DNA from: a virus | Direction: 5' to 3' (one strand) | IMG/VR virus record: IMGVR_UViG_3300017917_003742 | Span: 11,160-75,159 of that record | Length of the DNA stretch: 64,000 nucleotides | Shown: in pieces, positions 8,984-35,927 of the stretch | Numbering within the stretch: position 1 is the stretch's first letter | Layout: each line of letters begins with the position of its first letter | Translations under genes and position numbers: made by a program | Notes under the pieces: model-generated | Database searches by the model: none | The model's input: only the letters and a program-made list of their open reading frames with translations | What the model was told of the DNA's origin: nothing

Positions 8984-9484
8984 TTAACAAACCTTTTTAC
9001 TCAAATTACAAAATAAATCTTTTAAAGAGTTTTCGTCAAGAAAACTCTTTAATTTTTTAGGGTCCACAGGTGTTTTATTTTTGAGAAGCAACACTTCGTC
9101 AATAACACTACCCTCTAGTTCATTTACAAGAGCCTGATTTGGAATATCAGTTTTCTTTTTTAGGAAGAACAATTTGTTTGTAACACTTTTGAGTTTCTTA
9201 CAAATTTTATTAAGAAAGTTTGTTAATTTCTCACGATCATAATATTTGAATAGTTCGTGAGATTCAGAAAAAAAGTTGTCATGAAAAAATAACAAGTCTT
9301 TGTCGTTTGTTATTCTGTCGCCAAATCGTTTAACAAATAGGTAGAAAATTATTTTCTTTGCATTGCGATCTAGTTTAGAAAGCAACTTGTATTCGTATAA
9401 ACAATCAACGATTTCTTTCTCGATAAGAAATAAGAATCGGTCTATGTTCTCAAAGCTGTATAGCATAAGATAATATAACCTCAA
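8984..9484 (-). CDS. Hypothetical protein
   Basis: 166-aa ORF coupled (4-nt overlap) to the upstream minus-strand gene. Confidence 0.65.
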   Translation of the reverse strand: MRLYYLMLYSFENIDRFLFLIEKEIVDCLYEYKLLSKLDRNAKKIIFYLFVKRFGDRITNDKDLLFFHDNFFSESHELFKYYDREKLTNFLNKICKKLKSVTNKLFFLKKKTDIPNQALVNELEGSVIDEVLLLKNKTPVDPKKLKSFLDENSLKDLFCNLSKKVC

Positions 9485-10635
9485 CTGAACTCACATTCAA
9501 GTTCGTTTTTGAATGCTTGTTCTCCAGCCAATTTTATAAAATCTTCTTTCCATTTTTCATCTCTATCGGGAATGTCACTCCATATTATTTTATTCTTATG
9601 AAACGTTTCGTTGTTATAAAGTTTTATAAGAATTGAATCCTCGGTTTTTGGGGTTCCTGAAATTATAAGTTTATTAGATTTTGAACTTTTTACAACAGGT
9701 AAGCACGCTTTCAAAAATTGTTCCTTATCATCTTCTTCACAAAGATCTATATTATCTAAAATTAATAAACTGTGATTTTTACCTCTTATAATATTTGTGT
9801 TTAAACTAGAAGTGCCTATTTTACTACCATTTGAGAAATATATAGCGTCTGATCGTTGTTCAATTATTTTAGGAAAAAGAGGATTATTAAAGAAATAACA
9901 GGTTCTTCTTAATAATTCGTTGTAATGATGTGCATTCACACAGTTCATGGTATAAATTCCTGCGGAAAAATCTTTATTGAATAAACAACAGTGTAATGAG
10001 AATAATACGTGAAGCATAGACATTCCTGATTGACGACCTGCTATAGTTACGTTCATTTTATTTTCATTCCAGTCTTTTAATATTTCTTTTTGTTTATTAT
10101 ACAATTTTATAGAAGAAGACGCACCATCATGTGTGTTCCATTTGACATGATTTTCGATAAAATAAACTATATCGTTTTTACACTTTTCATATTCATCGGA
10201 TGATGAATTGTCTATAACTACTCTGTATTTTTCGATTAAATCTTTTGGGGGACCGTTGAGACGAATGTTGATAATTCCGTTATAATAATCTTCACGAAGA
10301 ATAGCATTCTCCTTTAATTGCCACATAAGTTCAAGATAGGCACTTTCCCACTTGCATGTAGTTAATTCTAGAATTTCTCTCTTAAAGTTTTCTTTACCGT
10401 ATTTCTTAAGGTCTTCTTTTAATTCATTAGAAGAACCATAGTATTTCTTCCAGTCGCTTTCTTTGACCACGCGACGACTTCTAGTTTTACCTTTTAGTGG
10501 AGGTCTTTTCTGATTGCTCCAGAATTGTTTTTTACCGATATACTTTTTACCATTAGACAGACAAGTGATACGATAAACAAAGCCAAACCACTCACTAATA
10601 TCTTCTGGAACATTTTCCCAAGAGTTTTCATTCAT
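9481..10635 (-). CDS. GIY-YIG nuclease domain fused to a degenerate terminase-large-subunit (gp17-like) ATPase domain
   Basis: N-term GFVYRIT...KKYIGKK...FKREIL...YYN. C-term EY.KC..D.VYF, L...Q, GRQSGMS, IRG...LLILDN, ISGTP, W.D.P.RD..W, F..E.ECEF. Confidence 0.75.
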   Translation of the reverse strand: MNENSWENVPEDISEWFGFVYRITCLSNGKKYIGKKQFWSNQKRPPLKGKTRSRRVVKESDWKKYYGSSNELKEDLKKYGKENFKREILELTTCKWESAYLELMWQLKENAILREDYYNGIINIRLNGPPKDLIEKYRVVIDNSSSDEYEKCKNDIVYFIENHVKWNTHDGASSSIKLYNKQKEILKDWNENKMNVTIAGRQSGMSMLHVLFSLHCCLFNKDFSAGIYTMNCVNAHHYNELLRRTCYFFNNPLFPKIIEQRSDAIYFSNGSKIGTSSLNTNIIRGKNHSLLILDNIDLCEEDDKEQFLKACLPVVKSSKSNKLIISGTPKTEDSILIKLYNNETFHKNKIIWSDIPDRDEKWKEDFIKLAGEQAFKNELECEFS

Positions 10636-10644
10636 ACTGGATAT

Positions 10645-10830
10645 TTACTTCCGTTTTTTGCGCTTTCTAGTCTTTTTGGTTTTTACTTTTCCTCTTCTGG
10701 AATATGTTCCCATTATAAACGGAGTTCGTGGATCATCTGTAGGATAAGGACCATCAGAACCTAATACTCCTGCATCAGTCATACCGTCTTCTAAAAACAT
10801 TTTTACTATTTTGTCAAAATTTTTAGTCAT
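10645..10830 (-). CDS. Small late protein with a basic C-terminus
   Basis: 61 aa. TAAATA 7 nt upstream. Ends KVKTKKTRKRKKRK. Confidence 0.7.
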   Translation of the reverse strand: MTKNFDKIVKMFLEDGMTDAGVLGSDGPYPTDDPRTPFIMGTYSRRGKVKTKKTRKRKKRK

Positions 10831-10882
10831 TTCTTACTATTTACTTGAAATCTATATATCAAGGTGGTATTTTTAAAGCATA

Positions 10883-11287
10883 ATGAACGAAGAACCTATG
10901 GATTTACTAGAGAAATACTCTAAGGAAATAGAAATGGACACCAGTATTGATGTTACAAACATTATGGAAAAGCAACTTTCTTGCCCTAATGTTAAACATA
11001 AATGGCTTTTCAGATTAATGAAAGCCAAGAAACATCTTATTGATTTGGTGGAACTTAAAGATAATTTTGTTAACAACATAATGAACAAAGATAATCCTTT
11101 AAAGTTGAGCAAAGCAGTTATTGCAAACAAGCTCGAAACTCAAGGAGATTATAAAGAATTACAGAAAAGAATAAAAGAGCAAGAGATTCTTGTAGAATAT
11201 CTTGATAGCAGTGTGAATAAAATTTTTAGTCAGATGGGATTTGACTTTAAAAATCTTGTTGAATTGATGAAAATGGAGCAATTATGA
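10883..11287 (+). CDS. uvsY: Recombination mediator UvsY
   Basis: D..ID...KW motif, helical, 134 aa, just upstream of uvsW as in T4-like phages. Confidence 0.75.
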   Translation: MNEEPMDLLEKYSKEIEMDTSIDVTNIMEKQLSCPNVKHKWLFRLMKAKKHLIDLVELKDNFVNNIMNKDNPLKLSKAVIANKLETQGDYKELQKRIKEQEILVEYLDSSVNKIFSQMGFDFKNLVELMKMEQL

Positions 11288-11940
11288 TGAATTATTCTAA
11301 TGCACTACGCGAACAAGAAATAATTAAAAATAGACACGATAGTTATTTTGATGATTTATGGGAAGTTATTAATGGGCGAGCATCCACTCCTGTAAAAGAT
11401 TATGAAAAAAGGCTTGCAGATTCTATAATGAATGAATCTAATAAACAGATGAACACTACTGAATGTAAAACTATATCCGCAGTAAATTATTTTCCTTCCG
11501 ATAATTTTTACGACAAGATGTTCACTAACTCTTTTGAATCAGATGTGAAACTTTTATCGAATTTTGAAGCAACAACAAATCTGTGTCTTTCTGGAACAAT
11601 TGAAAATATCAACTACTCTTATCAGACTCTTTGGCCGAAAAAGGATACTTCTCAGAAGAAAGTATATAAAAACTTTAATATTGATGATTTTAAGTATAGA
11701 GACGTTGCAAAGAGAAATATAAAAGCTGTTTTCCAAAAAAGAAAAATAAAAAACAAAGAAGAATGTATATATATTGTTGATAATCTTTCACCAGAAGGTG
11801 TAGAAATTTTTATTAAAAAATATGTTAATAGAGAAATAAAATGCTCTATACTAAAAATGTTGAGAAAGCTAGAAGCTTCTGATTGTACTTTTAATACACA
11901 AGATTGTGTATTTGAAAAATGGCAGAAGACATCAGAGTAA
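11284..11940 (+). CDS. Hypothetical protein inserted between uvsY and uvsW
   Basis: 218-aa ORF overlapping both neighbours. Confidence 0.65.
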   Translation: MMNYSNALREQEIIKNRHDSYFDDLWEVINGRASTPVKDYEKRLADSIMNESNKQMNTTECKTISAVNYFPSDNFYDKMFTNSFESDVKLLSNFEATTNLCLSGTIENINYSYQTLWPKKDTSQKKVYKNFNIDDFKYRDVAKRNIKAVFQKRKIKNKEECIYIVDNLSPEGVEIFIKKYVNREIKCSILKMLRKLEASDCTFNTQDCVFEKWQKTSE

Positions 11941-13343
11941 CATACGATAAGAAGAGTGGATATTTAAAATGTTCACCTAACGTTTTTAAACTGGTAAGAG
12001 AAAAGTTCTCTATAAAGAATCCATCTTATCAATCTAGGAAGTTTGTTCCTAGATTATATTCTATCACGCCTGCGGGTGCGTTTCAGGTAGGAATGTGGAA
12101 CGAGATTGAACATTATATTCGTTCTCTTAACATTCCTGTTAAAATAACATTATCAGACGAGTTTAAAAATCAATTTAATCCCCAAACAAACATCAAGGAA
12201 ATTTCTAAGATTGATGGATTCACTTATTATGATTATCAAGAGGATACACTAAACGAGTTTATCAAGAATGGTAGAGGTATATCACTTGTTGCTACTGGTG
12301 GCGGTAAAGCACTGATTGCAGGTGGCTTGTGTAAAACATTCCTCGATCACTATCCTCATTTCAAGATATTAATCATTGTTCCAAACGTGTCGTTGTTAAA
12401 TCAACTTTACTATTCTTTCCTAGATGAATTTGGAATAAGTTGTATATCTCGTTGGGGAGATGGTAAGCTTCCTGATTTATCTCAAAATATTCTCATTGCT
12501 AACTCTCAAATCTTAACAAGTGACATCAAAGCAACACTAGCTGTTGTCGGGAATTATGATGTTGTAATTGTTGATGAAGTTCATACCATTAACGAGAAGA
12601 AAAACAAAATCAGCAAAGTGGTTCATAATATAACCACACCTTTCAAGTTTGGACTTACAGGAACACTACCAGATAGTCTTATGGCAAGCTGGAATGTTAT
12701 TGGCAAGATTGGTCCTATTGTTTATGAGAAGACTTCTTATGAATTACGTAAACAAGGCACTATTACAGATGTCAAAATCAAAATGGTTTTATGTCAACAT
12801 GAACGTGTGCCTGTGTTTCTAACTGGTCCAAATCCAACTGACAAATATAACGCAGAATACGATTATGTTATAAACTACGCTCCAAGAAACGATGTTATTA
12901 AAAAGCTTTGTGACAAGCTTGTAGGAAACACATTGATTGTTGTGGACAGATTGGATTATATCTCAGTCTTGAAAAAATTATTAGAGGGTGGAGACAAAAA
13001 GATTTTCGTTATCACAGGCGAGACTCCAACAAGTGAGAGAACAGAAATCCAGAACACTATGGACAAAGAAGATGGAATCATTTGTATTGCCATGAGCAAA
13101 TGCTTTTCCACTGGTATTTCGATTAAGAATCTTCATTATGCAATTTTTGCATACATGGGAAAAGGTGGTGTTAAAACAGTTCAAACCATTGGCCGAACTG
13201 TTCGTAAACACAGTAGCAAAGAAGTAGCTGTGATTTTTGACATAGCTGACAACTTAGAATACTCTCGTAAACATGCAAAAGAAAGACTCCAAATATACAA
13301 AGAGCAAAAAATTGAGTATTCTATTACAAAAATAAAAATTTAA
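11919..13343 (+). CDS. uvsW: UvsW SF2 DNA helicase
   Basis: YDYQ, ATGGGK, VDEVH, GLTGT, STGISIKNLH, QTIGR..R. Confidence 0.92.
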   Translation: MAEDIRVTYDKKSGYLKCSPNVFKLVREKFSIKNPSYQSRKFVPRLYSITPAGAFQVGMWNEIEHYIRSLNIPVKITLSDEFKNQFNPQTNIKEISKIDGFTYYDYQEDTLNEFIKNGRGISLVATGGGKALIAGGLCKTFLDHYPHFKILIIVPNVSLLNQLYYSFLDEFGISCISRWGDGKLPDLSQNILIANSQILTSDIKATLAVVGNYDVVIVDEVHTINEKKNKISKVVHNITTPFKFGLTGTLPDSLMASWNVIGKIGPIVYEKTSYELRKQGTITDVKIKMVLCQHERVPVFLTGPNPTDKYNAEYDYVINYAPRNDVIKKLCDKLVGNTLIVVDRLDYISVLKKLLEGGDKKIFVITGETPTSERTEIQNTMDKEDGIICIAMSKCFSTGISIKNLHYAIFAYMGKGGVKTVQTIGRTVRKHSSKEVAVIFDIADNLEYSRKHAKERLQIYKEQKIEYSITKIKI

Positions 13344-13344
13344 T

Positions 13345-14076
13345 ATGTGGGAAACTGACACTGATGATATTGAACCCGAAGAAGAACTTTCTGAAATAGA
13401 TGTTCTTGATGAAAAGCCTCGTAAAAGAACACGCCGAACAAAGGCTGAAAAAGAAACTGAGGAATATGTTTCTAAAGAAGAGATGTGGAATGAACTATAC
13501 AATTATTACATTTCTCTTGGAGAAGATTATGATTGGGAAAATCAAAAGCTTCTTAAGAAAGATTCTTACCCCAAAATTTCAAATCGCTTAACAACCATTG
13601 TTAGTGATATTGCAACAAAAATGGGATACCGTGGAAACTTTTGCTCATATTCTTGGATTGACGAAATGATTGGTGATGCCACACTTAAAATGGTTAAAGC
13701 TGTTCGTGACTGCTCATTCAAGTGCTATACAATTGCCGAGATAATTTCTAAAACAGAAGATAACGGAACCGTATTTATCAGCTTTATTGATAAAAAAGGC
13801 GAAGCTCAGAAAAAGCAACTTGAAGAATCCGATACATTCTTTTTTGAAGATGGCAAGGAATATATCAAGTTTAAAGCAAATCCTTTTGGATACTTTTCTC
13901 GAATAACAAGTCATTCTTATCTTAATCGCATTAAAAAAGAAAAGTTATTAGAAGAGACAAAAAGAAATTTTCAAGCTGAAACTTGGGATCGTCTTTACTC
14001 TGATGAAAACTTTCGTAATGTTCGTCGTCCGAAATATATTGAAAACGACGATAATGATGGTATATTTGAGGAATGA
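13345..14076 (+). CDS. gp55: Late-transcription sigma factor gp55
   Basis: YVS..E, IA......NF..YSW.DEMIGDA, NPFGYF..I....Y.NRIKKEK. Confidence 0.88.
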   Translation: MWETDTDDIEPEEELSEIDVLDEKPRKRTRRTKAEKETEEYVSKEEMWNELYNYYISLGEDYDWENQKLLKKDSYPKISNRLTTIVSDIATKMGYRGNFCSYSWIDEMIGDATLKMVKAVRDCSFKCYTIAEIISKTEDNGTVFISFIDKKGEAQKKQLEESDTFFFEDGKEYIKFKANPFGYFSRITSHSYLNRIKKEKLLEETKRNFQAETWDRLYSDENFRNVRRPKYIENDDNDGIFEE

Positions 14077-14390
14077 GAAAAAAGATAGCAGACAGATTAT
14101 ACAAATTATACGGTGGTGATTTTAGACATTTTCCAAAGGGTTTACGAATGTTCCTTTGGAAAATGTTTGGGCATGATTACCGATTTTATCCACATGATAG
14201 AATGTATTTTCCAAAAATAGGAAAATATGAATATTCGGATTTAATAAATGTGGAAGATGAATGGTTTGTTTATAAGACATGGGTTCCGCATCTTTGGCCT
14301 GAATTATCAACAGAAGAAATTTGTAATGCTCGACTCATGAGCGGTCCTGTTAGTCTAAAGTTTCAATTAAATTACACTTATGAAGAGTAA
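14073..14390 (+). CDS. Small protein whose C-terminus resembles the gp23 major-capsid Gol region
   Basis: WVPHLWPELSTEEICNARLMSGPVSLKFQLNYTY aligns without gaps to T4 gp23 MVRRAIPNLIAFDICGVQPMNSPTGQVFALRAVY (recalled, aligned by eye). Confidence 0.55.
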   Translation: MRKKIADRLYKLYGGDFRHFPKGLRMFLWKMFGHDYRFYPHDRMYFPKIGKYEYSDLINVEDEWFVYKTWVPHLWPELSTEEICNARLMSGPVSLKFQLNYTYEE

Positions 14391-15147
14391 AGAAATTATA
14401 GAACAAAAAAACAAAGATAAAATAGATAGACTTTTATTAGAGATAGAAGTCTCACCTATTAACGAAACGGTCAATATCGACTATGTTATTAATCTCTGTT
14501 ATATAACAAAAAATACTATTAAAAAATATATAAAGGATAAAAAGTTAGAATGTTTATGGGTTGATAACGAACCTGTTTTTTTACGAACACATCTTTTGAA
14601 TTTTTTAAAAAATAATTATATAAAAGTTAGGACCGAATCTAAAATGTTAAAAGCTAGTATAGCTGGAAGTTCTATTTATGAAGGGAAGACCTGTGAAATC
14701 TGTAAAACCAAATCTAGATATATTTCTAATAGTAGTTGTGTTGATTGTTCTACGAGAAAAGGTATTATTAAGCTGAACGACCAAGAGCTTATGAAACAAT
14801 ATAGAACTCCTGAAAAAGTTAAACAATATACGAAAAAATATCGAAGTTTAGGAAAACATAGATGTTCTCCCTCTAATTCTAAAGTTAGTAAATTTAATCA
14901 CAATTTAATCAAAAATTACAATATAGATGCATCTATGTATAATAAATTACTAACTGAACAAAATAATGTCTGTGCTATATGTAAACGCTGTTGCGTATCA
15001 GGGAGACGTTTAGCAGTAGATCATGATCATAAAACTGGAAAGGTTCGTGGATTGCTGTGCGGTAGATGTAATACGGGATTAGGTAATTTTACTGATTCCA
15101 TTGAATTTTTAGAAGAAGCTATAAAATATTTAAAACATGAAAAATAA
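14380..15147 (+). mobile_element. Free-standing endonuclease VII-type HNH (homing) endonuclease
   Basis: Q...CAIC...LAVDHDH.TG.VRGLLC..CN.GLG, plus a CxxC...CxxC zinc finger. Confidence 0.85.
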
Positions 15148-16904: not shown

Positions 16905-16905
16905 T

Positions 16906-17559
16906 ATGAAAATTTTAATTACTAGTGGAGGAACCGATGTTCCTATTGACGATGTTCGTAAAATCTCTAACATGAGTTCAGGAAAATATGGTGCCGAAAT
17001 TGCAACTGTATTACATGATAATTTTTTTAATGAACATGATATTTGGTACTTAGGGAAAAAAGGTGGAGTGTTCCCTAATCCAGAGATAGATTTACATTTT
17101 CAAGGTAAAAAATATTTAGGTAATTTAATATTTTCTAATTATGAAGAATATAAAGAGAATAGCATAATAGCAGCGGCAAAGATTTCACCTGACATAATTA
17201 TTTCCGCAGCAGCGGTTTCCGATTACATCTTGGATAAAACAGAAGGTAAAATTTCTAGTGACAATGATGAACTTGTTATTCGCTTGAAGAAAGCTCCGAA
17301 GATTTTACCTTTGCTTCGTGAAGCGGCTCCAAATGCGCTTCTGGTAGGCTTTAAACTGCTTGTAAGTCCATCCAAGGATGAGATTGACAGTGCCGTTCAA
17401 AAGGTGTTTAAAAACGGCGCAGATTTGGTCGTGTATAACGACTTAACAGAGATTCGCAAAGGTAATCTCATACGCTATGTTTTTACTCCTACCATGAGTT
17501 TCACTATTGCAAGAGACGCCAAAGAATTAGTAGACATAATCCTCAATTATAAGAAATGA
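16906..17559 (+). CDS. coaB: Phosphopantothenate-cysteine ligase (stand-alone CoaB)
   Basis: LITSGGT..PIDDVR.ISNMSSGKYG, AAAVSDY, KISS, L...PKIL, LVGFKL, VVYND. Confidence 0.88.
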   Translation: MKILITSGGTDVPIDDVRKISNMSSGKYGAEIATVLHDNFFNEHDIWYLGKKGGVFPNPEIDLHFQGKKYLGNLIFSNYEEYKENSIIAAAKISPDIIISAAAVSDYILDKTEGKISSDNDELVIRLKKAPKILPLLREAAPNALLVGFKLLVSPSKDEIDSAVQKVFKNGADLVVYNDLTEIRKGNLIRYVFTPTMSFTIARDAKELVDIILNYKK

Positions 17560-18068
17560 AAGTGTTACACGGTTTAACAGGAAGTGTCGCAACTGTTCTG
17601 AATGATAAAATTCGACAATCTTATAATTTAGTATCATTTGATACAAAATTTATTGCAACTAACAATTCCTTTCAAATATCTAGTGTAGGAGAAGCTTATA
17701 CAGATAGTAGCGAATGGTTCGTTTATAGAGAAGAGAAAAAAGTTCTTCATATCGAACTTGTTAAGTGGGCAGATGTTTTTGTCATTGCACCACTCTCTGC
17801 TAACACTCTCGCAAAAATTGCAAATGGAATTTGTGACAACTTGCTCACATGTGTCGCAAGAGCGTGGGATTTCGAGAAACCTTTCATTGTTGCTCCCGCC
17901 ATGAATACAAAAATGTGGACTCATCCAATAACAGAAGAGCATGTTAAAAAACTTCGTTCATGGGGAATATCTGTTTTAGAACCTGTTGAGAAAACTCTTT
18001 ATTGTGGTGACACAGGAATAGGAGCAATGACAAATATTGAAAACATTATTAGAGCAATAAAAATATGA
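17556..18068 (+). CDS. coaC: Phosphopantothenoylcysteine decarboxylase (stand-alone CoaC, HAL3/PPCDC type)
   Basis: TGSVA, VLHIEL..WAD, APLSANTLAKIANGICDNLLT, PAMNTKMW, L.CGD.G.GAM. Confidence 0.92.
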   Translation: MKVLHGLTGSVATVLNDKIRQSYNLVSFDTKFIATNNSFQISSVGEAYTDSSEWFVYREEKKVLHIELVKWADVFVIAPLSANTLAKIANGICDNLLTCVARAWDFEKPFIVAPAMNTKMWTHPITEEHVKKLRSWGISVLEPVEKTLYCGDTGIGAMTNIENIIRAIKI

Positions 18069-18361: not shown

Positions 18362-18369
18362 ATAACTAC

Positions 18370-18819
18370 ATGGAAAAAGATTTAACATTAGATGATCTTA
18401 AAAACGCCATTGAAGAAATGGGATATTATGTTTCGGAAATACGTCCAAAAGGACCGTGTTGGGTTATTTTTGGAAAGGTGTTTTATGAAGGAAAGTTACG
18501 ATTTGAAAAAACTGCCATCGAGTGCCGAACACATAAAGTGAAAAATATAGACCAGTTCAAATTTGATATTATAACAGACTATAAAGATATTTGGGAAGAA
18601 AATAATATCAATCCCATATTTAGTTTATACACTCTTGAAAAAATACAAGATGAACAATCAGGAGAATCTTTATATGCTGTAAGATATGCGATTACAGATC
18701 ATTTATATAAAGGAGCGAAAGAAATAACAATCGAAGAAGCGAAAGAAATATTGAAAACTCGCAGAGACGATGTTTCAATGGAATTTTATCAAGATTTGAA
18801 GAACATTTACGAATTGTAA
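18370..18819 (+). CDS. Small protein resembling two joined segments of the gp23 major capsid protein
   Basis: FYEGKLRFEKTAIECRTHKVK vs gp23 WNEMGFRIDKQVIEAKSRQLK; PIFSLYTL....D.........VRYAI vs PYVALTPL...D...........TRYGI (recalled, by eye). Confidence 0.5.
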   Translation: MEKDLTLDDLKNAIEEMGYYVSEIRPKGPCWVIFGKVFYEGKLRFEKTAIECRTHKVKNIDQFKFDIITDYKDIWEENNINPIFSLYTLEKIQDEQSGESLYAVRYAITDHLYKGAKEITIEEAKEILKTRRDDVSMEFYQDLKNIYEL

Positions 18820-18872
18820 TCTATAAAATACTTGAAAAATTCTTAAACGGGTGATAAAGTATCTATACAAAA

Positions 18873-19733
18873 ATGTCAAAATTTAATCATTTCAAAGAAA
18901 AAACCGCAGTCGCAATCATCACCTGTAACCGTGAAGAATTCCTCCATCAAGCAGTAGAAAGCATAGATCGTGAAGCTGTAGGAGAAATTTTCGTTGTTAA
19001 TGCTGGTGGTCATCTTAAAAAAAGACCCGAAGGCGTTAAAATTGTTCAGTGTAACCGAAATCCTACCGTTGTAGGAATTGCTAAGAATATTGCTCTTCGT
19101 GAAATGAAAAAGAGTGGATACGAGTTTTTATTCTTAATGGAAGATGATGTTAAAGTTAAAGATAATAATGTTTTCTTGAAGTATATTGAAACCGCAATGG
19201 ACAGTGGACTTTGGGCAGGCCAGCTTTCTTATGGTGTTCACGGAGGCGTAGGAGGCGGAAACGTAGCTCCTGACGGAACTCCCCTAAAAAGACTCACTGT
19301 TCAATACACACATCATAAAGTAGATTTATATCGCAACAGCTTTCAAGCATTCACACTTTATCATGCAAACGTTTTAAATCAGATTGGATATTTCGCAGAA
19401 AACTATCTTAATGCAGCAGAACATTTAGATCATTACTACACTGCATACCTAAAAGGTCTTGGATGTAATTACTGGTATTTCCCTGACATTGAAAATTCAT
19501 TTGAGTATCTTGAAGACATTGATGCAAATCACAGCAACTCTGTAATTCGAAATTCCAAAGATTTTACAACCAACTTTTCAACAAGTTGGGGACTGTTCAA
19601 AGATAAATTCAATTGTTATCCTCACGAAGTCACGGATTCTTCTGTTGAAGAAGTGAACGAAAGATTAAATCTTATCGAACAAAACTATTCTCAAAAATCT
19701 TTACTAGAGTCTCCCGTTGACAGCGAACAATAA
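18873..19733 (+). CDS. Glycosyltransferase family 2
   Basis: AIITCNR, GIAKN, FLMEDD, EH.D motifs. Confidence 0.85.
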   Translation: MSKFNHFKEKTAVAIITCNREEFLHQAVESIDREAVGEIFVVNAGGHLKKRPEGVKIVQCNRNPTVVGIAKNIALREMKKSGYEFLFLMEDDVKVKDNNVFLKYIETAMDSGLWAGQLSYGVHGGVGGGNVAPDGTPLKRLTVQYTHHKVDLYRNSFQAFTLYHANVLNQIGYFAENYLNAAEHLDHYYTAYLKGLGCNYWYFPDIENSFEYLEDIDANHSNSVIRNSKDFTTNFSTSWGLFKDKFNCYPHEVTDSSVEEVNERLNLIEQNYSQKSLLESPVDSEQ

Positions 19734-19745
19734 CTGTAGTATAAT
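19717..19745 (+). promoter_or_regulatory. Consensus sigma70 promoter TTGACA-N17-TATAAT, 5 nt before ATG 19751
   Basis: Perfect consensus, read directly. Confidence 0.9.
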
Positions 19746-19750
19746 CTAGC

Positions 19751-20911
19751 ATGAGTCTTATTGATAAACTTAAAGAGTTAGGTGCAGTTTTTGTCGAAGA
19801 AACCATTAACGCCAATGATGGGAAATTCATTCTCGGAAAAGACGCTACAGCTTATGAGGAATTTCTCTATGTGTTGAAGTATGGTAACATTCCATCAACA
19901 TCTGATGTTGAATACAAGAAAAATCGCTTTGAAGAAGTGCTAAAATTCTTTATCAAAGAAAATTTCAAAGTTGGGTTTGTTCGTTCAACATACAATCGTT
20001 GGAGTGCAGAAACCGTCTTCTTGTTCAATGACAGCATCAAAACTATCATTGAACTTGCTGATCGAAAAAACAATGATGTTATTCTCACCACAGACGAGGA
20101 ATCGCAAAATGATGAGTATGCAACCATAACAATCTGTTATGACCTTCAAAAAGGTGGAGAATTTGCAAATAAAGTTAAAGAAGAATTTTTCGCAAAGAAA
20201 GATTTATCCGACAGTGGCAAGATTCTTTTGTTTGAAAAGACCGAATACAATGAGATGATTCTCACTCCTCACCCAATTAAGAACTATGATCTTGATTTGA
20301 GTGAAAACTACAACGACGACTTTCTTGATGTTCATGAAAAAATCAAAGGATGGGCAGAAGATTTCAAGAGTCGCAACAATAAGCTTGTTCTTCTTCATGG
20401 TGTTCCCGGTAGTGGAAAAACCAATTATATCAAGTATATCTTGAACAATATCAAATCCTCCAAGAAGATTTATATTCCGCCATATCTTGTGAACAGCATG
20501 GCAGACCCAGCATTTTTTCCTGTTATCAAACGTGAAAAGGAAAGCATTCTCATCATTGAAGATGCAGAAAAGATTCTTATCAATCGTGAAGATTCCTCAG
20601 ACAACAGTGTAATTTCAATCTTGTTGAACCTTTGTGATGGTATCATGGCTGATGTATTGAACTTTAAAATCATCGCAACTTTCAACACAGACGAAGATAA
20701 AATTGATGCTGCATTAAAGAGAAAAGGACGCATGTTTTTGAAGTATAAGTTTGACTCTCTTTCCAAAGAGAAAACTAAGCACTTGTTCAATAAAATTTAT
20801 GGTGCAGAACCACCTAAAGAACGTATGACTCTTGCCGAAATCTACAACGACGAAAACGAATTTGGTGCGAAAAAAGAAGAGAAGAAATCTATCGGTTTCC
20901 TTAATGTATGA
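19751..20911 (+). CDS. AAA+ ATPase
   Basis: LLHGVPGSGKT, LIIEDAE, LLN..DG, TFN, D.AL.R.GR. Confidence 0.88.
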   Translation: MSLIDKLKELGAVFVEETINANDGKFILGKDATAYEEFLYVLKYGNIPSTSDVEYKKNRFEEVLKFFIKENFKVGFVRSTYNRWSAETVFLFNDSIKTIIELADRKNNDVILTTDEESQNDEYATITICYDLQKGGEFANKVKEEFFAKKDLSDSGKILLFEKTEYNEMILTPHPIKNYDLDLSENYNDDFLDVHEKIKGWAEDFKSRNNKLVLLHGVPGSGKTNYIKYILNNIKSSKKIYIPPYLVNSMADPAFFPVIKREKESILIIEDAEKILINREDSSDNSVISILLNLCDGIMADVLNFKIIATFNTDEDKIDAALKRKGRMFLKYKFDSLSKEKTKHLFNKIYGAEPPKERMTLAEIYNDENEFGAKKEEKKSIGFLNV

Positions 20912-21678
20912 TCGGAATAGGAATAATTACATATGATCGTGAAGAAAAGTTCAATAGAGTATTAAGTTCTATTGAACTTTCTCGCGTCGGACATGTTGTT
21001 GCATTAAAAGACGGAGGAAAACCGCCTTATAAAGAACTGCCTTACTCTGATAAAAAAATTGAATATCACCAATTAGAGGATAATAAAGGAGTTGGAAAGT
21101 GCAAAAATATTATTTTAAATTATTTAACAAGTAAAGATTGTGAACATATTTTTTTACTAGAAGATGACTGTCTTGTAAAAGATAACAGTGTGTGGGACTA
21201 TTGCATATCTTTCGCAGAAGAAAGTGGACTATTACATTTTAACTGGAACGATTATCGTCATCCACGTTTTGCAACAGCAGAGTTTCATAAGCACAAGGCT
21301 GCACTTTGTCATAACACAGAAGCAAGTTTCTCTTACTTTCATAAGAAATTCCTAGAAGACATTCGTTTTGATGAAAATTATATGAATGCATGGGAACATA
21401 TAGACATCGAACTTCAAGGAGAAGCGAAAGGATTTCTACCTCCTTTTCGTTGGTTTGTTTCGCCATCAGATTTAAATTTATATCTTGAGGATATAGACAC
21501 AAATGATTCTTCTATCACAAACAGGGAACATTATCATGAACGTGTAATGAGTGGTCATCACTATTTTGAAAAAAAGTGGGGTAAAAAGGTCAACGAAATT
21601 CCAAGAGTAGACGGAAAATCCTTCTACGAAAAAATGAAACAAATTACAATAAAATATGCAAATCGCAATAGTAACTAA
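20908..21678 (+). CDS. Glycosyltransferase family 2 (paralog of 18873)
   Basis: GIITYDR, GVGKCKN, FLLEDD, FDE.Y..AWEH.D. Confidence 0.85.
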   Translation: MIGIGIITYDREEKFNRVLSSIELSRVGHVVALKDGGKPPYKELPYSDKKIEYHQLEDNKGVGKCKNIILNYLTSKDCEHIFLLEDDCLVKDNSVWDYCISFAEESGLLHFNWNDYRHPRFATAEFHKHKAALCHNTEASFSYFHKKFLEDIRFDENYMNAWEHIDIELQGEAKGFLPPFRWFVSPSDLNLYLEDIDTNDSSITNREHYHERVMSGHHYFEKKWGKKVNEIPRVDGKSFYEKMKQITIKYANRNSN

Positions 21679-23966: not shown

Positions 23967-25275
23967 TTTTTTAGTAACTAATAAACAAATCGAAAATTTA
24001 GATCACGTAAATTATTATCTAAAATTCAGAGGTCCAGACCATACAGAAATTGTAGAAGAAAATGGATGGACTATGATTCATAATTTACTGTCTATTACGG
24101 GAGATTTTACAAGTCAACCAATTTCACAGAACAATGTTTTTCTTATTTTTAATGGAGAAGTTTATAATTTTTTAGATAATAATAAAGATTATAAAAGCGA
24201 TGCATATTTTATATTAGATGAATATTTTTCTAAAGGAGAAGATTTTGTAAAAAATCTAGATGGAGAATTTGCACTCGTATTATTAGATTTTAATAAAAAC
24301 GTGTTGTATTTCTCTAGTGATATTTTTTGTTCAAAACCTATTTTCGTAGCTTCGGAAAACAAAAAGATAGGCATCGCTTCTTATAAATCATCTTTAGAAA
24401 GACTAGGATTTAATAATTTTCAGAGAGTAACTCCCAATACTCTTTATAAATTAGATATAACTAATTGGACCTTAACCCACAACAATATTCACGATTGGGA
24501 GTTGACTCAGAATATTGATTCTTACGATCTTTGGGAAGAAGCTTTTTTTCAATCATTAACTAAGAGAACTATCTTTACAAGAAATTCATTTCTTGTTCCT
24601 ATGAGTAGTGGTTATGATAGCGGCTCTATCGTTTGTGGTTTGGTAAATTCTCCTAACAAAAAAGATTTTATAACGTATTCGTTTTTCGGAAACGAAGATC
24701 GTTCTATCATAGAATCAAGATTACAGAATCATGACAAGAAATATTTTAGTAATAGTATAACAACTTCTCAGAAAAATGAAATTGTTGATCTTATGAAAGA
24801 GATTGTTGAGCCTTTTTATTATGGTCCTTCACCTCAGACTAAAACTCATGAGGGGTTTGATGATAAAGGTGCTATAGGTCTTTTTTATCTTCTTAAAGAA
24901 ATGAAACAGAAGGAGAATATCAAGGTCCAATTATCAGGACAAGGTGGAGACGAAATAACAGGAAATTTATCAACATATGGTTTTAACACCAGAAACCCTA
25001 ATCCTTGGCCGAATGATTTGAAGAGTGTGTTTCCTTGGGGAAACTTTTACTATGGCGCAAATTGGAGTTATCTGAACAAAGAAGAGTGTATAGCAGGAAG
25101 TCTTGGAATCGAAACACGCTATCCCCTCTTGGATAAGAAGGTTGTTCAGTCTTTTATTAATCTTACACCTGAATTTAAAAATAGGTTTTATAAAGCACCT
25201 TTAAGGAATTTCATGAGTAAATATAAGTTCCCATTCAAAGAAGAAAAGTTAGGATTTAATTTACAAATTATATGA
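23959..25275 (+). CDS. asnB: Asparagine-synthase-like glutamine amidotransferase
   Basis: N-terminal Cys2, RGPD, FNGEVYN, LDGEFA, MSSGYDS, SGQGGDE, E.RYPLLD. Confidence 0.85.
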   Translation: MCSFLVTNKQIENLDHVNYYLKFRGPDHTEIVEENGWTMIHNLLSITGDFTSQPISQNNVFLIFNGEVYNFLDNNKDYKSDAYFILDEYFSKGEDFVKNLDGEFALVLLDFNKNVLYFSSDIFCSKPIFVASENKKIGIASYKSSLERLGFNNFQRVTPNTLYKLDITNWTLTHNNIHDWELTQNIDSYDLWEEAFFQSLTKRTIFTRNSFLVPMSSGYDSGSIVCGLVNSPNKKDFITYSFFGNEDRSIIESRLQNHDKKYFSNSITTSQKNEIVDLMKEIVEPFYYGPSPQTKTHEGFDDKGAIGLFYLLKEMKQKENIKVQLSGQGGDEITGNLSTYGFNTRNPNPWPNDLKSVFPWGNFYYGANWSYLNKEECIAGSLGIETRYPLLDKKVVQSFINLTPEFKNRFYKAPLRNFMSKYKFPFKEEKLGFNLQII

Positions 25276-25859
25276 CAGAAATAACCAAACTAGGAACAGA
25301 ATATGGTAAACACTATATTGACCTAAATTACATAAATAAAGATTCTCTAGTATATTCATTTGGAATAGGAGAAGACATATCTTTTGATATGGAAATCATC
25401 AATCGAAAAGGGTGTACAATTCATGCTTTTGACCCTACACCAAAAAGTTTAAAATGGATAAAATCACAAAACCTACCTGATACTTTTAAATTTTATGAAT
25501 ATGGATTATCTAATATAGATGGAATATTATCATTTGAACCACCACCAAATCCAGAATGGGTATCATATAAAGAGTCATCAAAAGGCGAATTCTCTTTTCC
25601 TGTCAAAAAATTAAGTACAATTCTAAAAGAATTGGGACATTCAAAAAGAATAGATTTTCTGAAATTAGATATTGAAGGTTCAGAATATTCTGTTATAGAA
25701 AACATTTTAAAAGAAAATCTAAATCCTTTTCAGATGAGCATAGAATTTCACGGCGATCCTAAATACATAATATCTTGGGTCACTGAGAATAAACAGTTAA
25801 GAGATAGTTATCATGCATACGTATTTCCTGATAACGAGATTTACTTTTTTACAAAATAA
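25272..25859 (+). CDS. FkbM-family SAM methyltransferase
   Basis: YSFGIGEDISFD, FDPTP, LKLDIEGSEY, IEFH. Confidence 0.88.
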   Translation: MTEITKLGTEYGKHYIDLNYINKDSLVYSFGIGEDISFDMEIINRKGCTIHAFDPTPKSLKWIKSQNLPDTFKFYEYGLSNIDGILSFEPPPNPEWVSYKESSKGEFSFPVKKLSTILKELGHSKRIDFLKLDIEGSEYSVIENILKENLNPFQMSIEFHGDPKYIISWVTENKQLRDSYHAYVFPDNEIYFFTK

Positions 25860-25862
25860 AAT

Positions 25863-26426
25863 ATGGAACATTATTACCAAAATATAGGCGAAAACTGGTT
25901 TAGTTATCAAGGACTTTATACAGAAATGGTTAAGAGATACGACAATGCAAAATTTGTCGAGATTGGTTGTTGGAGAGGACGCAGTGCTTGTTATCTCGCT
26001 GTTGAAATTTTTAACAGCAACAAAAATATTCAATTGTATTGCGTTGATACTTGGGCAGGCAGTGAAGAACATAAAGACATGGACGTAATCAAGGATAATA
26101 AGTTATATGACGAATTTTTAGGTAATATTGAACCTGTAAAGCATATTATAACTCCTGTGCGAAACGCATCATTGGAAGCGGTAAAGTCTTTTGAAGATAA
26201 TTACTTTGACTTTATATTCATTGATGCCTCCCATGACTATGAAAATGTTTTAGCAGATTTAAGAGCATGGTATCCAAAACTTAAAACTGGCGGATATTTT
26301 GCAGGTCATGATTATGGTAATACATGGACTGGTGTTAACAGAGCAGTTGACCAATGGTGTCAAGAAAACAACGTGAGATTAGAAATGTCTGGTCATCAAT
26401 CATGTTGGGGATTAACTAAAAAATAA
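25863..26426 (+). CDS. Class I SAM methyltransferase (Methyltransf_24-like)
   Basis: VEIGCWRGRS, VDTW, FIDASHDY, GG...GHDY. Confidence 0.88.
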   Translation: MEHYYQNIGENWFSYQGLYTEMVKRYDNAKFVEIGCWRGRSACYLAVEIFNSNKNIQLYCVDTWAGSEEHKDMDVIKDNKLYDEFLGNIEPVKHIITPVRNASLEAVKSFEDNYFDFIFIDASHDYENVLADLRAWYPKLKTGGYFAGHDYGNTWTGVNRAVDQWCQENNVRLEMSGHQSCWGLTKK

Positions 26427-26427
26427 T

Positions 26428-27135
26428 ATGAAAACTGCTTTTTGTTTCTCAGGAGAATTAAGAAGCATAGACAAAACCTATCCGTTATTAAAGGAAAAAA
26501 TAATGGATAGGTTTTCTAACTATGATATTTTTTATCATACTTGGAAAGATGATCCTGATTTAAATAAATTACATTATTTTGAAAATGACAATCATACGAA
26601 AAATATCATCGTAGAGAATCGAGTCACTTTAGATGAAAAAAAGTATAACAAACATCTAATAAACAATACCAAAGTTCAGCCTTTGTTAAGACAACTATAT
26701 GGTCTTGAACAAGTAAACAACTTAAAAAAAGAACAAGAAAAACAAAACGGATTTTCATATGATATTGTTTTTAGGATAAGACCAGATATTCTTGTGTGCA
26801 ACAACACTTCGCTTGAAAAAGGTGTCGAGACTTGGGATATGAAAGATTATGTATATACCACAGACCATGATGATTACGGAGGTTACAATGATAAATTCTA
26901 TTTTTCGAATTCTGTAAACATGGACATATTATCCAATAGAAGAGAACTTATGGATTATTACGTGAGTATCGGCGGTTTATTACATTATGAGAAATTTTTA
27001 AAATTTTCTATAGATTACTCTGGATTAAAATTATGTCGAACTTCTATGTTGTTTACACTCCTACGAACAAACGGAAACTTCTCAGGACAATTAGAGGATA
27101 ATAAATTTATAAAAATTAATTTAGATAACTCTTGA
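26428..27135 (+). CDS. Putative glycosyltransferase-like protein
   Basis: A.CFSG.LR, YD.V.R.RPD, ND.F motifs typical of glycan-cluster proteins. Confidence 0.55.
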   Translation: MKTAFCFSGELRSIDKTYPLLKEKIMDRFSNYDIFYHTWKDDPDLNKLHYFENDNHTKNIIVENRVTLDEKKYNKHLINNTKVQPLLRQLYGLEQVNNLKKEQEKQNGFSYDIVFRIRPDILVCNNTSLEKGVETWDMKDYVYTTDHDDYGGYNDKFYFSNSVNMDILSNRRELMDYYVSIGGLLHYEKFLKFSIDYSGLKLCRTSMLFTLLRTNGNFSGQLEDNKFIKINLDNS

Positions 27136-28012
27136 TGTTTTTCAAAAAACCGTGTGGAGAAAAATAAGTTTCCCATAATTCTCTATTACTTTTAAGATTG
27201 AAATTTTTACTTACAATAATTTCAGGTAACTTTTCTATATCATCAAAATCTATTAGAATTATATGGTCGTTCCAATCTATAATGTTTTCTAATGGTAAAA
27301 TCGTGTTTGTATTTATAACTACAGGAACGCGCCCAAAACAAAGAGATTCGTAAAAACGGTAAGAGAAATTACCGTTACCTCTCATACAAAAAGTATATTT
27401 ATTTTGTATAATATTTGAATAGAATTCTCTTTTGGCTTTAAATTTCGGAAGTTCTGGCGACCAAAAACCAGACCTAACTATTTTATTGACAGGAAACACT
27501 TTTTCGATTTTTTCTAAAGCTTCTTTTCTATTACTGTTGTACACCCCACAAAACCCGATACTTTCGCTACATTCTTCCATAAAGATGCAATCATCAGATA
27601 TTAGAGCAGGAAATACTCTTTCGTTTTCTAAAATATTAGAACGTCCTACACTTGTTCTGAAAAGTATAAGATTGTCTGGTAATGTGAATTTTGATTCGTT
27701 GTCGTCATTATAAAAGGCGATTACTTTTTTATCATATTTTTTTGCATCTTGGCAAATTTCATTTATTCTTGAATCGTTAGGGTGGTATTTAAATGGAACA
27801 CCCACATAGTCACAATTTTCAATGGTAGTTGATTTTATCGAATTTTGTCCTGTGAAAAATAGTTTATTTAATAATCCATGATTCCAATAACCATGTGCAT
27901 TTGTTATTTTTTCAAAAGCTATTTCATTTACAAATGGTATTGCCCATAATAATTCTGATGAACATACTAAATCATTTGGTGTTAGCCGTTTTAAATCTAC
28001 ATGAAGGTTCAT
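27116..28012 (-). CDS. Exostosin-family (GT47) glycosyltransferase
   Basis: IGFCG, YTFCMRG.GNFSYRFYESL..GRVPV, LP....IDW. Confidence 0.8.
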   Translation of the reverse strand: MNLHVDLKRLTPNDLVCSSELLWAIPFVNEIAFEKITNAHGYWNHGLLNKLFFTGQNSIKSTTIENCDYVGVPFKYHPNDSRINEICQDAKKYDKKVIAFYNDDNESKFTLPDNLILFRTSVGRSNILENERVFPALISDDCIFMEECSESIGFCGVYNSNRKEALEKIEKVFPVNKIVRSGFWSPELPKFKAKREFYSNIIQNKYTFCMRGNGNFSYRFYESLCFGRVPVVINTNTILPLENIIDWNDHIILIDFDDIEKLPEIIVSKNFNLKSNRELWETYFSPHGFLKNIKSYLN

Positions 28013-28018
28013 TTCTTT

Positions 28019-28078
28019 TACTTAAACGTAGATTCGTTTTTGTCAACAGTTGACATTCATAGCTCTTCTATGTATATA
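28019..28078. promoter_or_regulatory. Back-to-back divergent promoters sharing palindrome TGTCAACAGTTGACA
   Basis: Plus strand: TTGACA(28050)-N17-TATATA-N5-ATG 28084. Minus strand: TTGACA(28046)-N16-TAAGTA-N6-ATG 28012. Confidence 0.75.
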
Positions 28079-28083
28079 TTTTT

Positions 28084-29082
28084 ATGAGTCAAAAAACAGC
28101 TTTAGTGTTAGGTGCTGGTGGATTTATCGGAAACCACCTTGTTAATCGTTTAAAATCCGAAGGTTATTGGGTTCGTGGTGTTGATTTAAAATATCCTGAA
28201 TATCAGTTTAGCAATTCAGATGATTTCATCATTGGTGATTTAAGAGATGTGTTTGTTGTAACAAAAGCTTTCTTTATACCAAAACAGACGGCTCCAAATG
28301 GCACAGGAATCTTTGATGAAGTGTATCAACTTGCTGCTGATATGGGTGGTGCTGGGTATATCTTTACTGGTGAGAATGATGCAAATGTAATGCACAACTC
28401 TGCTACTATTAATCTTAATGTTGCTGATGCAGCAGTTAAGTTTAATGCAGGCAAAGTGTTCTACTCGTCTTCTGCTTGTATGTATCCTGCATATAATCAA
28501 GAAGACCCTGAAAATCCAAACTGTGTTGAAAGTAGCGCATATCCTGCTGCACCAGATAGTGAGTATGGTTGGGAGAAACTTTTCAGCGAAAGACTCTATC
28601 TTGCATACAACCGAAACTATGGTCTTGATGTTCGTATTGCACGATTCCACAACATTTTTGGCCCACTAGGAACATGGCAAGGTGGTAAAGAAAAAGCTCC
28701 TGCTGCTATCTGTCGTAAAGTAATTTCCTCAACAGATGAAATTGAAATTTGGGGCGATGGCGAACAAACACGTTCGTTCCTTTATATTGATGAATGTATT
28801 GAAGGTATTCGTCGTTTAATGAATGGTGATTTCCTTGGTCCTGTAAATCTTGGCAGTGAGGAAAGAGTTACAATCAATCAGCTTGTTGACATTGCTTGCT
28901 CTATTGAAGGTAAGAATCTCAAGAAAAAACACATCACTGGCCCAACAGGCGTTCGTGGAAGAAATTCTGATAACCGATTGATACAAGAAAAATTAGGTTG
29001 GGAGCCAAACTATCCTCTCGCAAAAGGTTTAGAAACAACTTATCAGTGGATTAAATCACAAATGGAAACTAAATATATTTGA
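28084..29082 (+). CDS. NAD-dependent epimerase, GDP-mannose 3,5-epimerase-like
   Basis: GAGGFIG, LAADMGGAGYI, SSSACMYP, YGWEK, RFHNIFGP.GTW.GGKEKAPAAICRK, GVRGRNSDN. Confidence 0.9.
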   Translation: MSQKTALVLGAGGFIGNHLVNRLKSEGYWVRGVDLKYPEYQFSNSDDFIIGDLRDVFVVTKAFFIPKQTAPNGTGIFDEVYQLAADMGGAGYIFTGENDANVMHNSATINLNVADAAVKFNAGKVFYSSSACMYPAYNQEDPENPNCVESSAYPAAPDSEYGWEKLFSERLYLAYNRNYGLDVRIARFHNIFGPLGTWQGGKEKAPAAICRKVISSTDEIEIWGDGEQTRSFLYIDECIEGIRRLMNGDFLGPVNLGSEERVTINQLVDIACSIEGKNLKKKHITGPTGVRGRNSDNRLIQEKLGWEPNYPLAKGLETTYQWIKSQMETKYI

Positions 29083-29083
29083 T

Positions 29084-29287
29084 ATGATGACTACAAAATC
29101 CGCATTTGGTATTACCCGTCCCGGCGATCATTTCTCCCATACACAAGGACAACCTTTGACTCCTCCCGCTCCCGCACAAAATATTGAAGCGGAAAAATTC
29201 AAGATTCTTTCCGAAGCAATTCAGAAGTTTATGAATAAAGAAATCTCTAAATCCGAACTCGAAGCCATACAAAACTCGTTGAAGTAA
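29084..29287 (+). CDS. Small hypothetical protein
   Basis: 67-aa ORF directly after the epimerase. Confidence 0.5.
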   Translation: MMTTKSAFGITRPGDHFSHTQGQPLTPPAPAQNIEAEKFKILSEAIQKFMNKEISKSELEAIQNSLK

Positions 29288-29307
29288 AGGAGTTCTTGGT
29301 GTAAATT
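29279..29307 (+). promoter_or_regulatory. Promoter TTGAAG-N17-TAAATT, 5 nt before the GTG of gp46
   Basis: Read directly. Confidence 0.65.
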
Positions 29308-29312
29308 ACACT

Positions 29313-31055: not shown

Positions 31056-31075
31056 GGCATTTTTAAATATTTGAA

Positions 31076-32428: not shown

Positions 32429-32433
32429 GAACT

Positions 32434-35016: not shown

Positions 35017-35266
35017 AACAAAAAGGTTTTACCATATCATATTTGACGAGAGAGACATTGAAGAAATACGAAAAGATTACTTTGAGGAACGTTGGATTTC
35101 AAAAGAAGAATTAATTCGTTTATTTGAATACGAAGAACAACAATTTATAGAACACTACAAGAATCTTCAAAAAGATTACAATGATATGCTTTCGTATTTT
35201 AATATGAATGCATTGTCGAATTATACACTTTTAGAAAGAAAATACCAAGGAAGTTTAAAAAAATAA
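34985..35266 (+). CDS. Hypothetical protein
   Basis: ORF overlapping the gp43 end; start uncertain (34961 or 34985). Confidence 0.5.
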   Translation: MKSRWKTFLDKTKRFYHIIFDERDIEEIRKDYFEERWISKEELIRLFEYEEQQFIEHYKNLQKDYNDMLSYFNMNALSNYTLLERKYQGSLKK

Positions 35267-35311
35267 CTCTTTTCTCTTGAAAACACACGTTTCTCTGTGT
35301 TAATACTTTAT

Positions 35312-35680
35312 ATGGAAGAAAAAGTAATAGGAATTCTTAAAAACGTCAGCGAGCTTATCGTTGCAACTCTTGTCGAAGAAACAGACACCGCCGTAAAGGT
35401 TAAAAATCCTGCATTCTTAGGAATCGCTGGTCAAAATAATCAAATCAATATCAATTTCATTCCCTTGGAAATGCTCAGTCTTCAACCCTCTGTGAATGTT
35501 AGAAACCTTCTTGCAAATCCAGCCGAAGAATTGATTTATACATTTGATAAGAACAGTGTTCTCAAATCCGACTTGGTTCTTGCACAAAACGTCATTGACA
35601 ACTACAAGAATCTAACAACAGCAAAACCTGCTCCAACAACTGCAAAAACCGCAGAAGAAAACGTCGTAAAACTTTACTAA
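35312..35680 (+). CDS. Hypothetical protein (possible Sm-like beta fold)
   Basis: ATG at 35312 follows a TTGAAA-N17 promoter-like element; beta-rich ELIVATLVEE..VKVKNPA. Confidence 0.65.
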   Translation: MEEKVIGILKNVSELIVATLVEETDTAVKVKNPAFLGIAGQNNQININFIPLEMLSLQPSVNVRNLLANPAEELIYTFDKNSVLKSDLVLAQNVIDNYKNLTTAKPAPTTAKTAEENVVKLY

Positions 35681-35684
35681 TTAT

Positions 35685-35927
35685 ATGAAACCAGAAGAAC
35701 AAAATCAAAAAAATTCAGAGCTAAATACGCTCATGACAATCTTAAATAGTTATAATCAACTACCTGTTGATTTTTGCCTAAAAGAATTTTTAGGTTGGGA
35801 TGACACAAAAATTAAAACCTTTAACAAAGAACGTAAAAAGACAAAAAGAAATATTCTAAAAGAATATAACAAAATGTCTAAAGCTATTTCATCCGATTCT
35901 TGTTGCGGAACCTCCTGTCAAGGATAA
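35685..35927 (+). CDS. Small protein, weak resemblance to the portal (gp20) C-terminal crown helix
   Basis: LPVDFCLKEFLGWDDTKI vs T4 gp20 ISHRTAMKDILQMTDEEI (recalled, by eye). Confidence 0.4.
   Translation: MKPEEQNQKNSELNTLMTILNSYNQLPVDFCLKEFLGWDDTKIKTFNKERKKTKRNILKEYNKMSKAISSDSCCGTSCQG

Follow-up and report, generated by a model that had tools for sequence, protein, structure and literature searches.

Does a phage keep altered copies of pieces of its own head and packaging proteins among its replication genes and, if so, what are such copies for? The question is raised by a 64,000-nucleotide stretch of DNA (here the window; bases 11160-75159 of the 75-kb IMG/VR viral record IMGVR_UViG_3300017917_003742) in which the initial annotation had picked out four degenerate copies of virion proteins, two of them resembling the capsid protein gp23 and one each the terminase large subunit (TerL) and the portal, and had grouped them as a single system within the replication region. 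Two of these, a catalytically dead TerL ATPase at 9481 and a capsid-derived tail at 14073, stand up to comparison with relatives, while those at 18370 and 35685 are not established. On sequence grounds the contig holds two genuine, selected self-mimic genes and one probable further family, which are separately inherited, and we put at roughly 45% the probability that these are separate accessory genes, each of whose products would use a selected copy of a piece of a head or packaging protein as a borrowed binding surface.

The phage is an uncultured large T4-like phage and the contig is a fragment of its genome (CheckV completeness 29%), with a guanine plus cytosine content of about 33% in the window and no near match to the window among 50,697 GenBank phage records. 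In what follows L-numbers denote related loci or contigs and G000, G001 and G002 the genomes of relatives, that of G002 being complete at 236 kb.

A nuclease gene with a TerL-like pseudo-ATPase

The gene at 9481-10635 (minus strand) encodes P0001, a protein of 384 amino acids (aa) in which Pfam and PHROG matches identify a SegE-type GIY-YIG nuclease joined to a catalytically dead T4-type TerL ATPase. The GIY-YIG catalytic domain (aa 10-122; 10270-10608, minus strand) covers positions 10-123 of the 123 of the SegE_GIY-YIG profile (PF19835, E 3.5e-36) and its motif residues are invariant across six homologues. The TerL-like domain occupies aa 147-384 (9484-10197, minus strand), where Terminase_6N matches aa 199-383 (Pfam, E 9e-8), BLASTP aligns aa 147-329 with aa 108-288 of T4 gp17 (E 3e-21) and tblastn aligns aa 116-383 with the first ~270 residues of cyanomyovirus TerL at 31-33% identity (E ~1e-31). 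An AlphaFold2 model, moderately confident in the TerL part only, has the T4 gp17 ATPase domain (2o0h) as its best Foldseek match (E 3e-19).

Alignment with T4 gp17 shows a degenerate Walker A motif, GRQSGMSM (10015-10038, minus strand), in which RQSGMS replaces RQLGKT and the lysine has become methionine, and a degenerate Walker B motif, LLILDN (9751-9768, minus strand), which replaces MIYIDE and has asparagine for the catalytic glutamate. The adenine-binding glutamine, the P-loop Arg-Gln, the Walker B aspartate and the C-motif are retained. The protein ends at the ATPase/nuclease boundary with no RNase H-like nuclease domain, and the C-terminal half of TerL was not found anywhere in the 75-kb record. 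Neither a NUMOD nor a helix-turn-helix DNA-binding domain was matched in P0001 by Pfam, nor was an intein (Hint) domain; the closest stand-alone GIY-YIG relatives (P0019, P0022-24) bear NUMOD3 at the position where the P0001 family has the TerL module or nothing. The Pfam, tblastn, BLASTP and Foldseek matches together with the two substituted catalytic residues bear out the dead TerL ATPase proposed at 9481.

Five full-length homologues of P0001 (382-387 aa, 43-65% identity) share its architecture, and in all six members of this fused family the Walker A lysine has given way to a hydrophobic residue and the catalytic glutamate to asparagine. A library-wide HMMER search with the TerL-like part returned, among the best 150 matches, 29 further representatives in which one or other of these positions is not lysine or not glutamate, nearly all of them complete proteins of 236-320 aa that begin with methionine and end at the same boundary. 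In an alignment of 15 pseudo-TerL sequences with a mean identity of 33% the P-loop arginine and glycine and the D-N pair are invariant. The best PHROG of every member tested was phrog_5989, labelled 'terminase large subunit'. A separate intact TerL of 537 aa with GKS and DE motifs is encoded in G001, and the identity of only 30% between the pseudo-TerL and this clade TerL rules out a recent duplicate of the phage's own enzyme.

Between L127 and L004 the ratio of non-synonymous to synonymous substitution rates (dN/dS) in the pseudo-TerL was 0.23, as against 0.06 in the nuclease domain and 0.02 in an ORF (open reading frame) of 160 aa that follows them, with values of 0.04-0.08 for the GIY-YIG domain between relatives. 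With its conserved length, invariant substitutions and a dN/dS indicative of purifying selection, the gene at 9481 is not a decaying duplicate. Stand-alone pseudo-TerL genes without any GIY-YIG neighbour also occur in unrelated contexts (L153:5986-6714 and L160:5857-6741), the one in L153 having a tRNA nucleotidyltransferase gene on one side and a portal gene two genes on.

The window contains a T4-like replication and recombination module recognised by PHROG and Pfam matches, comprising UvsY (10883-11287), UvsW (11919-13343), the late sigma factor gp55 (13345-14076), Dda helicase, gp47, gp46, DNA polymerase gp43, UvsX and gp41, and the ORFs named in the initial annotation sit interspersed with these genes. 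In order to avoid ascertainment bias we retrieved relatives through UvsY (n=23 loci). All 23 carry a GIY-YIG gene between uvsY and the 160-aa ORF, although in 2 of the 23 it is a different, inverted copy, so that the nuclease gene is fixed in this phage group. Only the TerL module is sporadic, being present in 6/23 of the loci, which are scattered over UvsY identities of 50-95%.

The fused form is found in the window, L089, L127 and L004, whereas in L091 (141 aa + 248 aa) and L140 the two parts are split into neighbouring genes 8-14 nt apart. The nearest relative, L005, is syntenic at 83-87% nucleotide identity and has a GIY-YIG gene of 140 aa (96% protein identity) that lacks exactly the TerL-like part, a clean 742-nt insertion or deletion at 9478-10219 (minus strand) delimited by blastn block boundaries and junction alignment; L006 resembles L005 in having the nuclease gene without the module. 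Fused, split and module-less forms thus all lie at one syntenic locus. As both fused and split forms exist, the nuclease and the pseudo-terminase would act together, the latter being, as far as sequence comparison tells, an optional partner that is fast-evolving but constrained.

The 160-aa ORF (8984-9466, minus strand) always follows the nuclease or pseudo-TerL gene. It was found at 29-92% identity in 22 of the 23 loci, the sequence of L269 stopping short of it. Purifying selection on this ORF is very strong, and no Pfam family matches it. It may encode a partner or inhibitor of the nuclease.

Three other ORFs in this part of the window (5944-6708, 8203-8853 and 14380-15147) are clean insertions relative to L005 and are probably mobile endonuclease genes. 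That at 14380-15147 has an Endonuclease_7 domain (E 2e-25), and that at 8203-8853 has a weak restriction-endonuclease-like match and resembles an ORF just downstream of the G001 capsid gene.

Capsid segments on small proteins

The gene at 14073-14390 (plus strand), whose start overlaps the end of the gp55 gene, encodes P0003, a protein of 105 aa with a folded N-terminal domain and a capsid-like C-terminal tail. Searches of Pfam, PHROGs and the ESM Atlas with P0003 gave nothing usable, and against T4 gp23 alone it scores only marginally (Smith-Waterman z 3.1), a level also reached by 3 of 96 background ORFs. When gp23-type capsid proteins from relatives of the same clade were taken as the comparison set the picture was different, with the tail scoring 85-98 (z 13-18, 0/300 shuffles) and hhalign aligning the P0003 family to four capsid proteins over 33 columns at 48% identity (96% probability, E 4e-9). 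The 33-aa tail (14289-14387, plus strand) copies the segment corresponding approximately to aa ~101-133 of T4 gp23, which overlaps the Gol region, and the Gol-region peptide suggested at 14073 is borne out. Gol, a segment of 29 residues, binds domains II and III of EF-Tu and is more conserved than any other part of gp23 (PMC3014915). Dismissal of this gene as noise, as comparison with T4, Pfam and PHROG only would have had it, was a false negative that the clade capsid proteins overturned; this capsid mimic escaped T4 and Pfam references and became clear only against the capsid protein of its own clade. Screens of all ORFs against the proteomes of relatives returned only the Gol tail and the TerL part as fragment-like virion matches that beat shuffled controls.

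The capsid-like part of P0003 is limited to these 33 residues with no full HK97-like capsid fold, and PF07068, which represents that fold, had no match in six frames of the record. In the AlphaFold2 model the N-terminal part has a predicted local distance difference test (pLDDT) score of ~80 and the tail ~50, and Foldseek found no match in BFVD better than E 1.1.

The P0003 family has eight members (103-108 aa, 43-88% identity) with a consensus tail that contains QPMSGPVGL. Between 15 and 19 of 30 tail residues are identical to the invariant capsid segment of the clade, and the most distant member (L268, 43% overall identity) retains 19/30. At the shared tail residues the third codon positions are ~35-65% identical, compared with 70% among capsid orthologues, and protein-level selection is therefore favoured over recent DNA copying; recent gene conversion of the tail at the DNA level is ruled out by the same figures. 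Length and tail are kept down to 43% identity and dN/dS is 0.2-0.4 in closer pairs, and this intact gene is likewise under purifying selection. It is patchy among the UvsY-anchored relatives and is present or absent independently of the pseudo-TerL module, which argues against the single system that had been envisaged.

A further gene, P0191 (10645-10830, minus strand), lies just upstream of the nuclease gene and encodes a basic protein of 61 aa. Small proteins of relatives (L220-L224 and L219) have a Gly-rich stretch, the capsid N-arm motif DWYAPGDAR(V/I)PK and a Lys/Arg-rich polybasic tail, resemble aa ~100-142 of the clade capsid protein (z 9-16) and may be internal head proteins. P0191 belongs to this family, with which it has a YSRRGKVKTKK tail in common. 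Its L091 orthologue matches aa 112-142 of the clade capsid protein with z 7.6 and the related L220 protein matches with z 16, while P0191 of the window itself gives z 1.1, which is not significant. From these family relationships P0191 is probably a third gene that carries a piece of the capsid protein. As both N-arm and Gol-tail proteins were found, capsid-peptide copies on small proteins recur in this phage group.

The remaining candidates did not rise above chance. P0004, an ORF of 149 aa at 18370-18819 (plus strand) that had been read as a gp23 P-domain mini-protein, has a 19-residue resemblance to one capsid segment that is not significant (hhalign probability 7%, P 0.005, 19 columns; Smith-Waterman z at most 2.5). 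Nothing usable was returned for it by the ESM Atlas and no relatives by an alignment-based locus search. It has a single known homologue, and the two keep complementary subsets of FEKTAVEAGTR, a resemblance in sequence that is suggestive but fails correction for the number of ORFs scanned. A tblastn search of the 50,697 phage records with the ORFs at 14073, 18370 and 35685 gave no match at E<=1.

P0005, an ORF of 80 aa at 35685-35927 (plus strand), had been likened to the portal crown. Its aa 24-55 resemble the portal C-terminal region suggestively but, again, not significantly (hhalign probability 15%, P 0.0017). It has two orthologues, and members of the family match the same C-terminal region in three different portals; a six-frame search of the complete 236-kb relative with P0005 gave a single match, which falls at the C-terminal end of the portal (E 0.023). 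When the proteome was screened without bias, however, the portal match had E 0.11 and shuffled queries got down to E 0.004, which places it at noise level. The clade's own portal was found neither in G000 or G001 nor in the 10 kb around clade capsid genes, and searching for it with one protein yielded only G002-like portals. We give the portal resemblance about one chance in three of being real. Weaker gp23-like hints in the ORFs at 11284 and 6698 had chance-level scores and no Pfam or PHROG match.

The portal (745 aa; L175/L176) and TerL (728 aa; L088) of G002 are unusually long with interrupted Pfam matches, which suggests that they hold inserted domains or inteins. Upstream of P0004 two adjoining genes at 16906-18068 match DFP (CoaB-like, E 6e-28) and Flavoprotein (CoaC-like, E 1e-28) in Pfam and form a split pair of coenzyme A pathway genes carried by a phage. 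Downstream, at 18873-29082, glycosyltransferase-like genes and genes of unknown function stand in a row flanked by replication genes.

Possible roles of the copied segments

What follows on partners and functions we infer throughout from the homology, inactivating substitutions, conservation, purifying selection and patterns of fusion, splitting and absence established above. In the reading that we favour a SegE-like GIY-YIG nuclease, fixed at the uvsY locus and without a DNA-binding domain of its own, has in some lineages an optional partner, either fused to it or encoded by the next gene, in the form of a TerL ATPase lacking the Walker A lysine, the catalytic glutamate and the nuclease domain. 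On the sequence data this pseudo-terminase is probably a targeting module, which would serve as a subunit bringing the nuclease to DNA or to packaging complexes. P0003, which would be expressed from the gp55 transcription unit, ends in a flexible copy of the capsid Gol segment and, by analogy with Gol, this tail probably takes up the same partner, be it EF-Tu itself or a sensor of capsid protein plus EF-Tu, and would compete with the capsid protein for it.

A number of points weigh against this reading. EF-Tu binding is an extrapolation from T4 and Escherichia coli. The rate of evolution of the pseudo-TerL is 4-10 times that of its neighbours and the module is often lost, so that it may be only weakly useful. 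In the window the Gol tail is altered at three positions that are invariant in the capsid protein (QPM to RLM, and G to S), and overall conservation of P0003 is no higher in the tail (64%) than in the N-terminal domain (65%).

The same genes could instead form a coordinated set of immune decoys, in which the dead TerL, the Gol-tail protein and the portal-like peptide would occupy sensors without activating them, the sensors being Avs1-3 and Upx for TerL, Lit, Avs7 and CapRel for the Gol tail and Avs4 or Avs11-type proteins for the portal-like peptide. What Avs2 and Avs3 read in the terminase is the active site of the ATPase with its ATP, Avs3 recognising active-site residues and the bound nucleotide and EcAvs2 needing the ATPase domain with ATP, and this domain alone suffices for EcAvs2 and Upx (PMC13601566); the features so read are those altered in the pseudo-TerL, in which the fold is kept. 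Gol with EF-Tu is the trigger of Lit (PMC3014915), Avs7 uses capsid protein plus EF-Tu and, as its gene begins before the gp55 gene has ended, P0003 is probably made before the capsid protein, which we also count in favour of decoys. Set against this are the independent variation of the genes among relatives, the lack of significance of the portal-like and P-domain-like members and the tie of the TerL mimic in this clade to a nuclease that a pure decoy would not need, and we regard a coordinated decoy set as quite unlikely. We also consider it unlikely that these genes represent a previously undescribed class of T4-like self-mimics with an anti-defence role, in which ATP-dead, nuclease-less TerL and capsid-peptide proteins would bind sensors (candidates being Avs1-3 and Upx, and Lit or Avs7 with EF-Tu) without triggering them. 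A plain loss of enzyme activity, or employment as targeting modules, fits the data as well as a decoy role does.

Targeting could also be to the capsid itself, with the capsid-derived segments acting as procapsid tags and the pseudo-TerL docking the nuclease at the portal or packaging motor. The small N-arm-motif proteins of relatives, with polybasic tails that would suit a DNA-associated internal head protein, are in keeping with this, as are the position of one such family directly upstream of the nuclease gene and that of the L153 stand-alone pseudo-TerL close to a portal gene. The basic protein of the window however has no significant capsid match, and the genes lie in the replication module with no TATAAATA late-promoter box near any of the mimic genes (3 such boxes in the whole window vs 6 expected by chance), which leaves capsid targeting an unlikely explanation. 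A further one is that a homing endonuclease once beside TerL moved with flanking fragments that are functionless debris. A GIY-YIG gene does lie directly upstream of TerL in Agrobacterium phage Atu_ph04, the window has several endonuclease-type insertions relative to L005, and the pseudo-TerL is patchy and fast-evolving. Debris would not be expected to keep an intact frame and length down to 27-36% identity, invariant RQ.G and D-N positions and a dN/dS of 0.23, nor to include stand-alone members away from any GIY-YIG gene, and in the Gol-tail family length and tail persist at 43% identity although the third codon positions have diverged; we judge this account very unlikely. Finally P0001 might be one half of a fractured terminase gene, split by an intein with an intervening GIY-YIG gene, and part of a real packaging enzyme. 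Such arrangements exist, but here there is no Hint match, the TerL part runs from the TerL N-terminus to a domain boundary and no C-terminal half lies downstream of it, its catalytic residues have been replaced and a relative has a separate intact TerL. We reject this explanation, the probability of which is negligible.

Comparison with known systems

Among bacterial immune sensors, Avs1-3, Upx, Avs7 and Lit respond to the terminase ATPase domain or to capsid protein plus EF-Tu, and this phage group keeps non-enzymatic copies of these sensor-read elements under selection. The copies are thus candidates for counter-defence through mimicry of triggers, or else for novel means by which a nuclease is directed to its target or proteins are brought into capsids. 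The dead-TerL family, annotated at present just as 'terminase large subunit' or 'hypothetical protein', could also mislead genome annotation and terminase-based phylogeny.

Among known proteins the N-terminal domain of P0001 is closest in type to the Seg nucleases of T4, matching SegE_GIY-YIG over its full length, and the genomic setting is similar, with segE beside uvsW in T4 and the P0001 gene beside uvsY and uvsW. It differs from Seg-type nucleases in lacking a NUMOD or helix-turn-helix DNA-binding domain, in being encoded at the same locus in all of the relatives sampled rather than sporadically, and in having as its C-terminal module a pseudo-terminase, fused or separately encoded. Juxtaposition of TerL and GIY-YIG is also a feature of fractured TerL genes with split inteins and free-standing GIY-YIG genes, from which P0001 differs in having no intein, no C-terminal TerL half and an inactive ATPase. 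With the ATPase domain of T4 gp17 (PDB 2O0H, 3CPE) it has the fold and motif order in common, but not the Walker A lysine, the catalytic glutamate or the RNase H-like domain. T4 vs.8, a TerL-ATPase-like protein that stands alone, activates EcAvs2 and retains both Walker A and B (PMC13601566). It is like the stand-alone pseudo-TerL proteins in being a phage paralogue that consists of the terminase ATPase domain alone, although close kinship with the C-terminal domain of P0001 was rejected, the BLASTP match being limited to E 0.24 around GRQSGKS.

The tail of P0003 aligns to the same segment as the Gol peptide of T4 gp23, the activator of the Lit protease via EF-Tu, and the two share the pattern I-C-x-x-Q-P-M-x-x-P-x-G-x-x-F-x-L. 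In P0003 however the segment is a free C-terminal tail on an unrelated domain of 70 aa rather than a part of the capsid protein. The internal proteins IPI-III of T4 offer a possible analogy, being small and often basic proteins that bear short capsid targeting modules. In T4 these targeting modules lie at the N-terminus and gp21 cleaves them, whereas the modules described here are copies of capsid segments and stand at or near the C-terminus.

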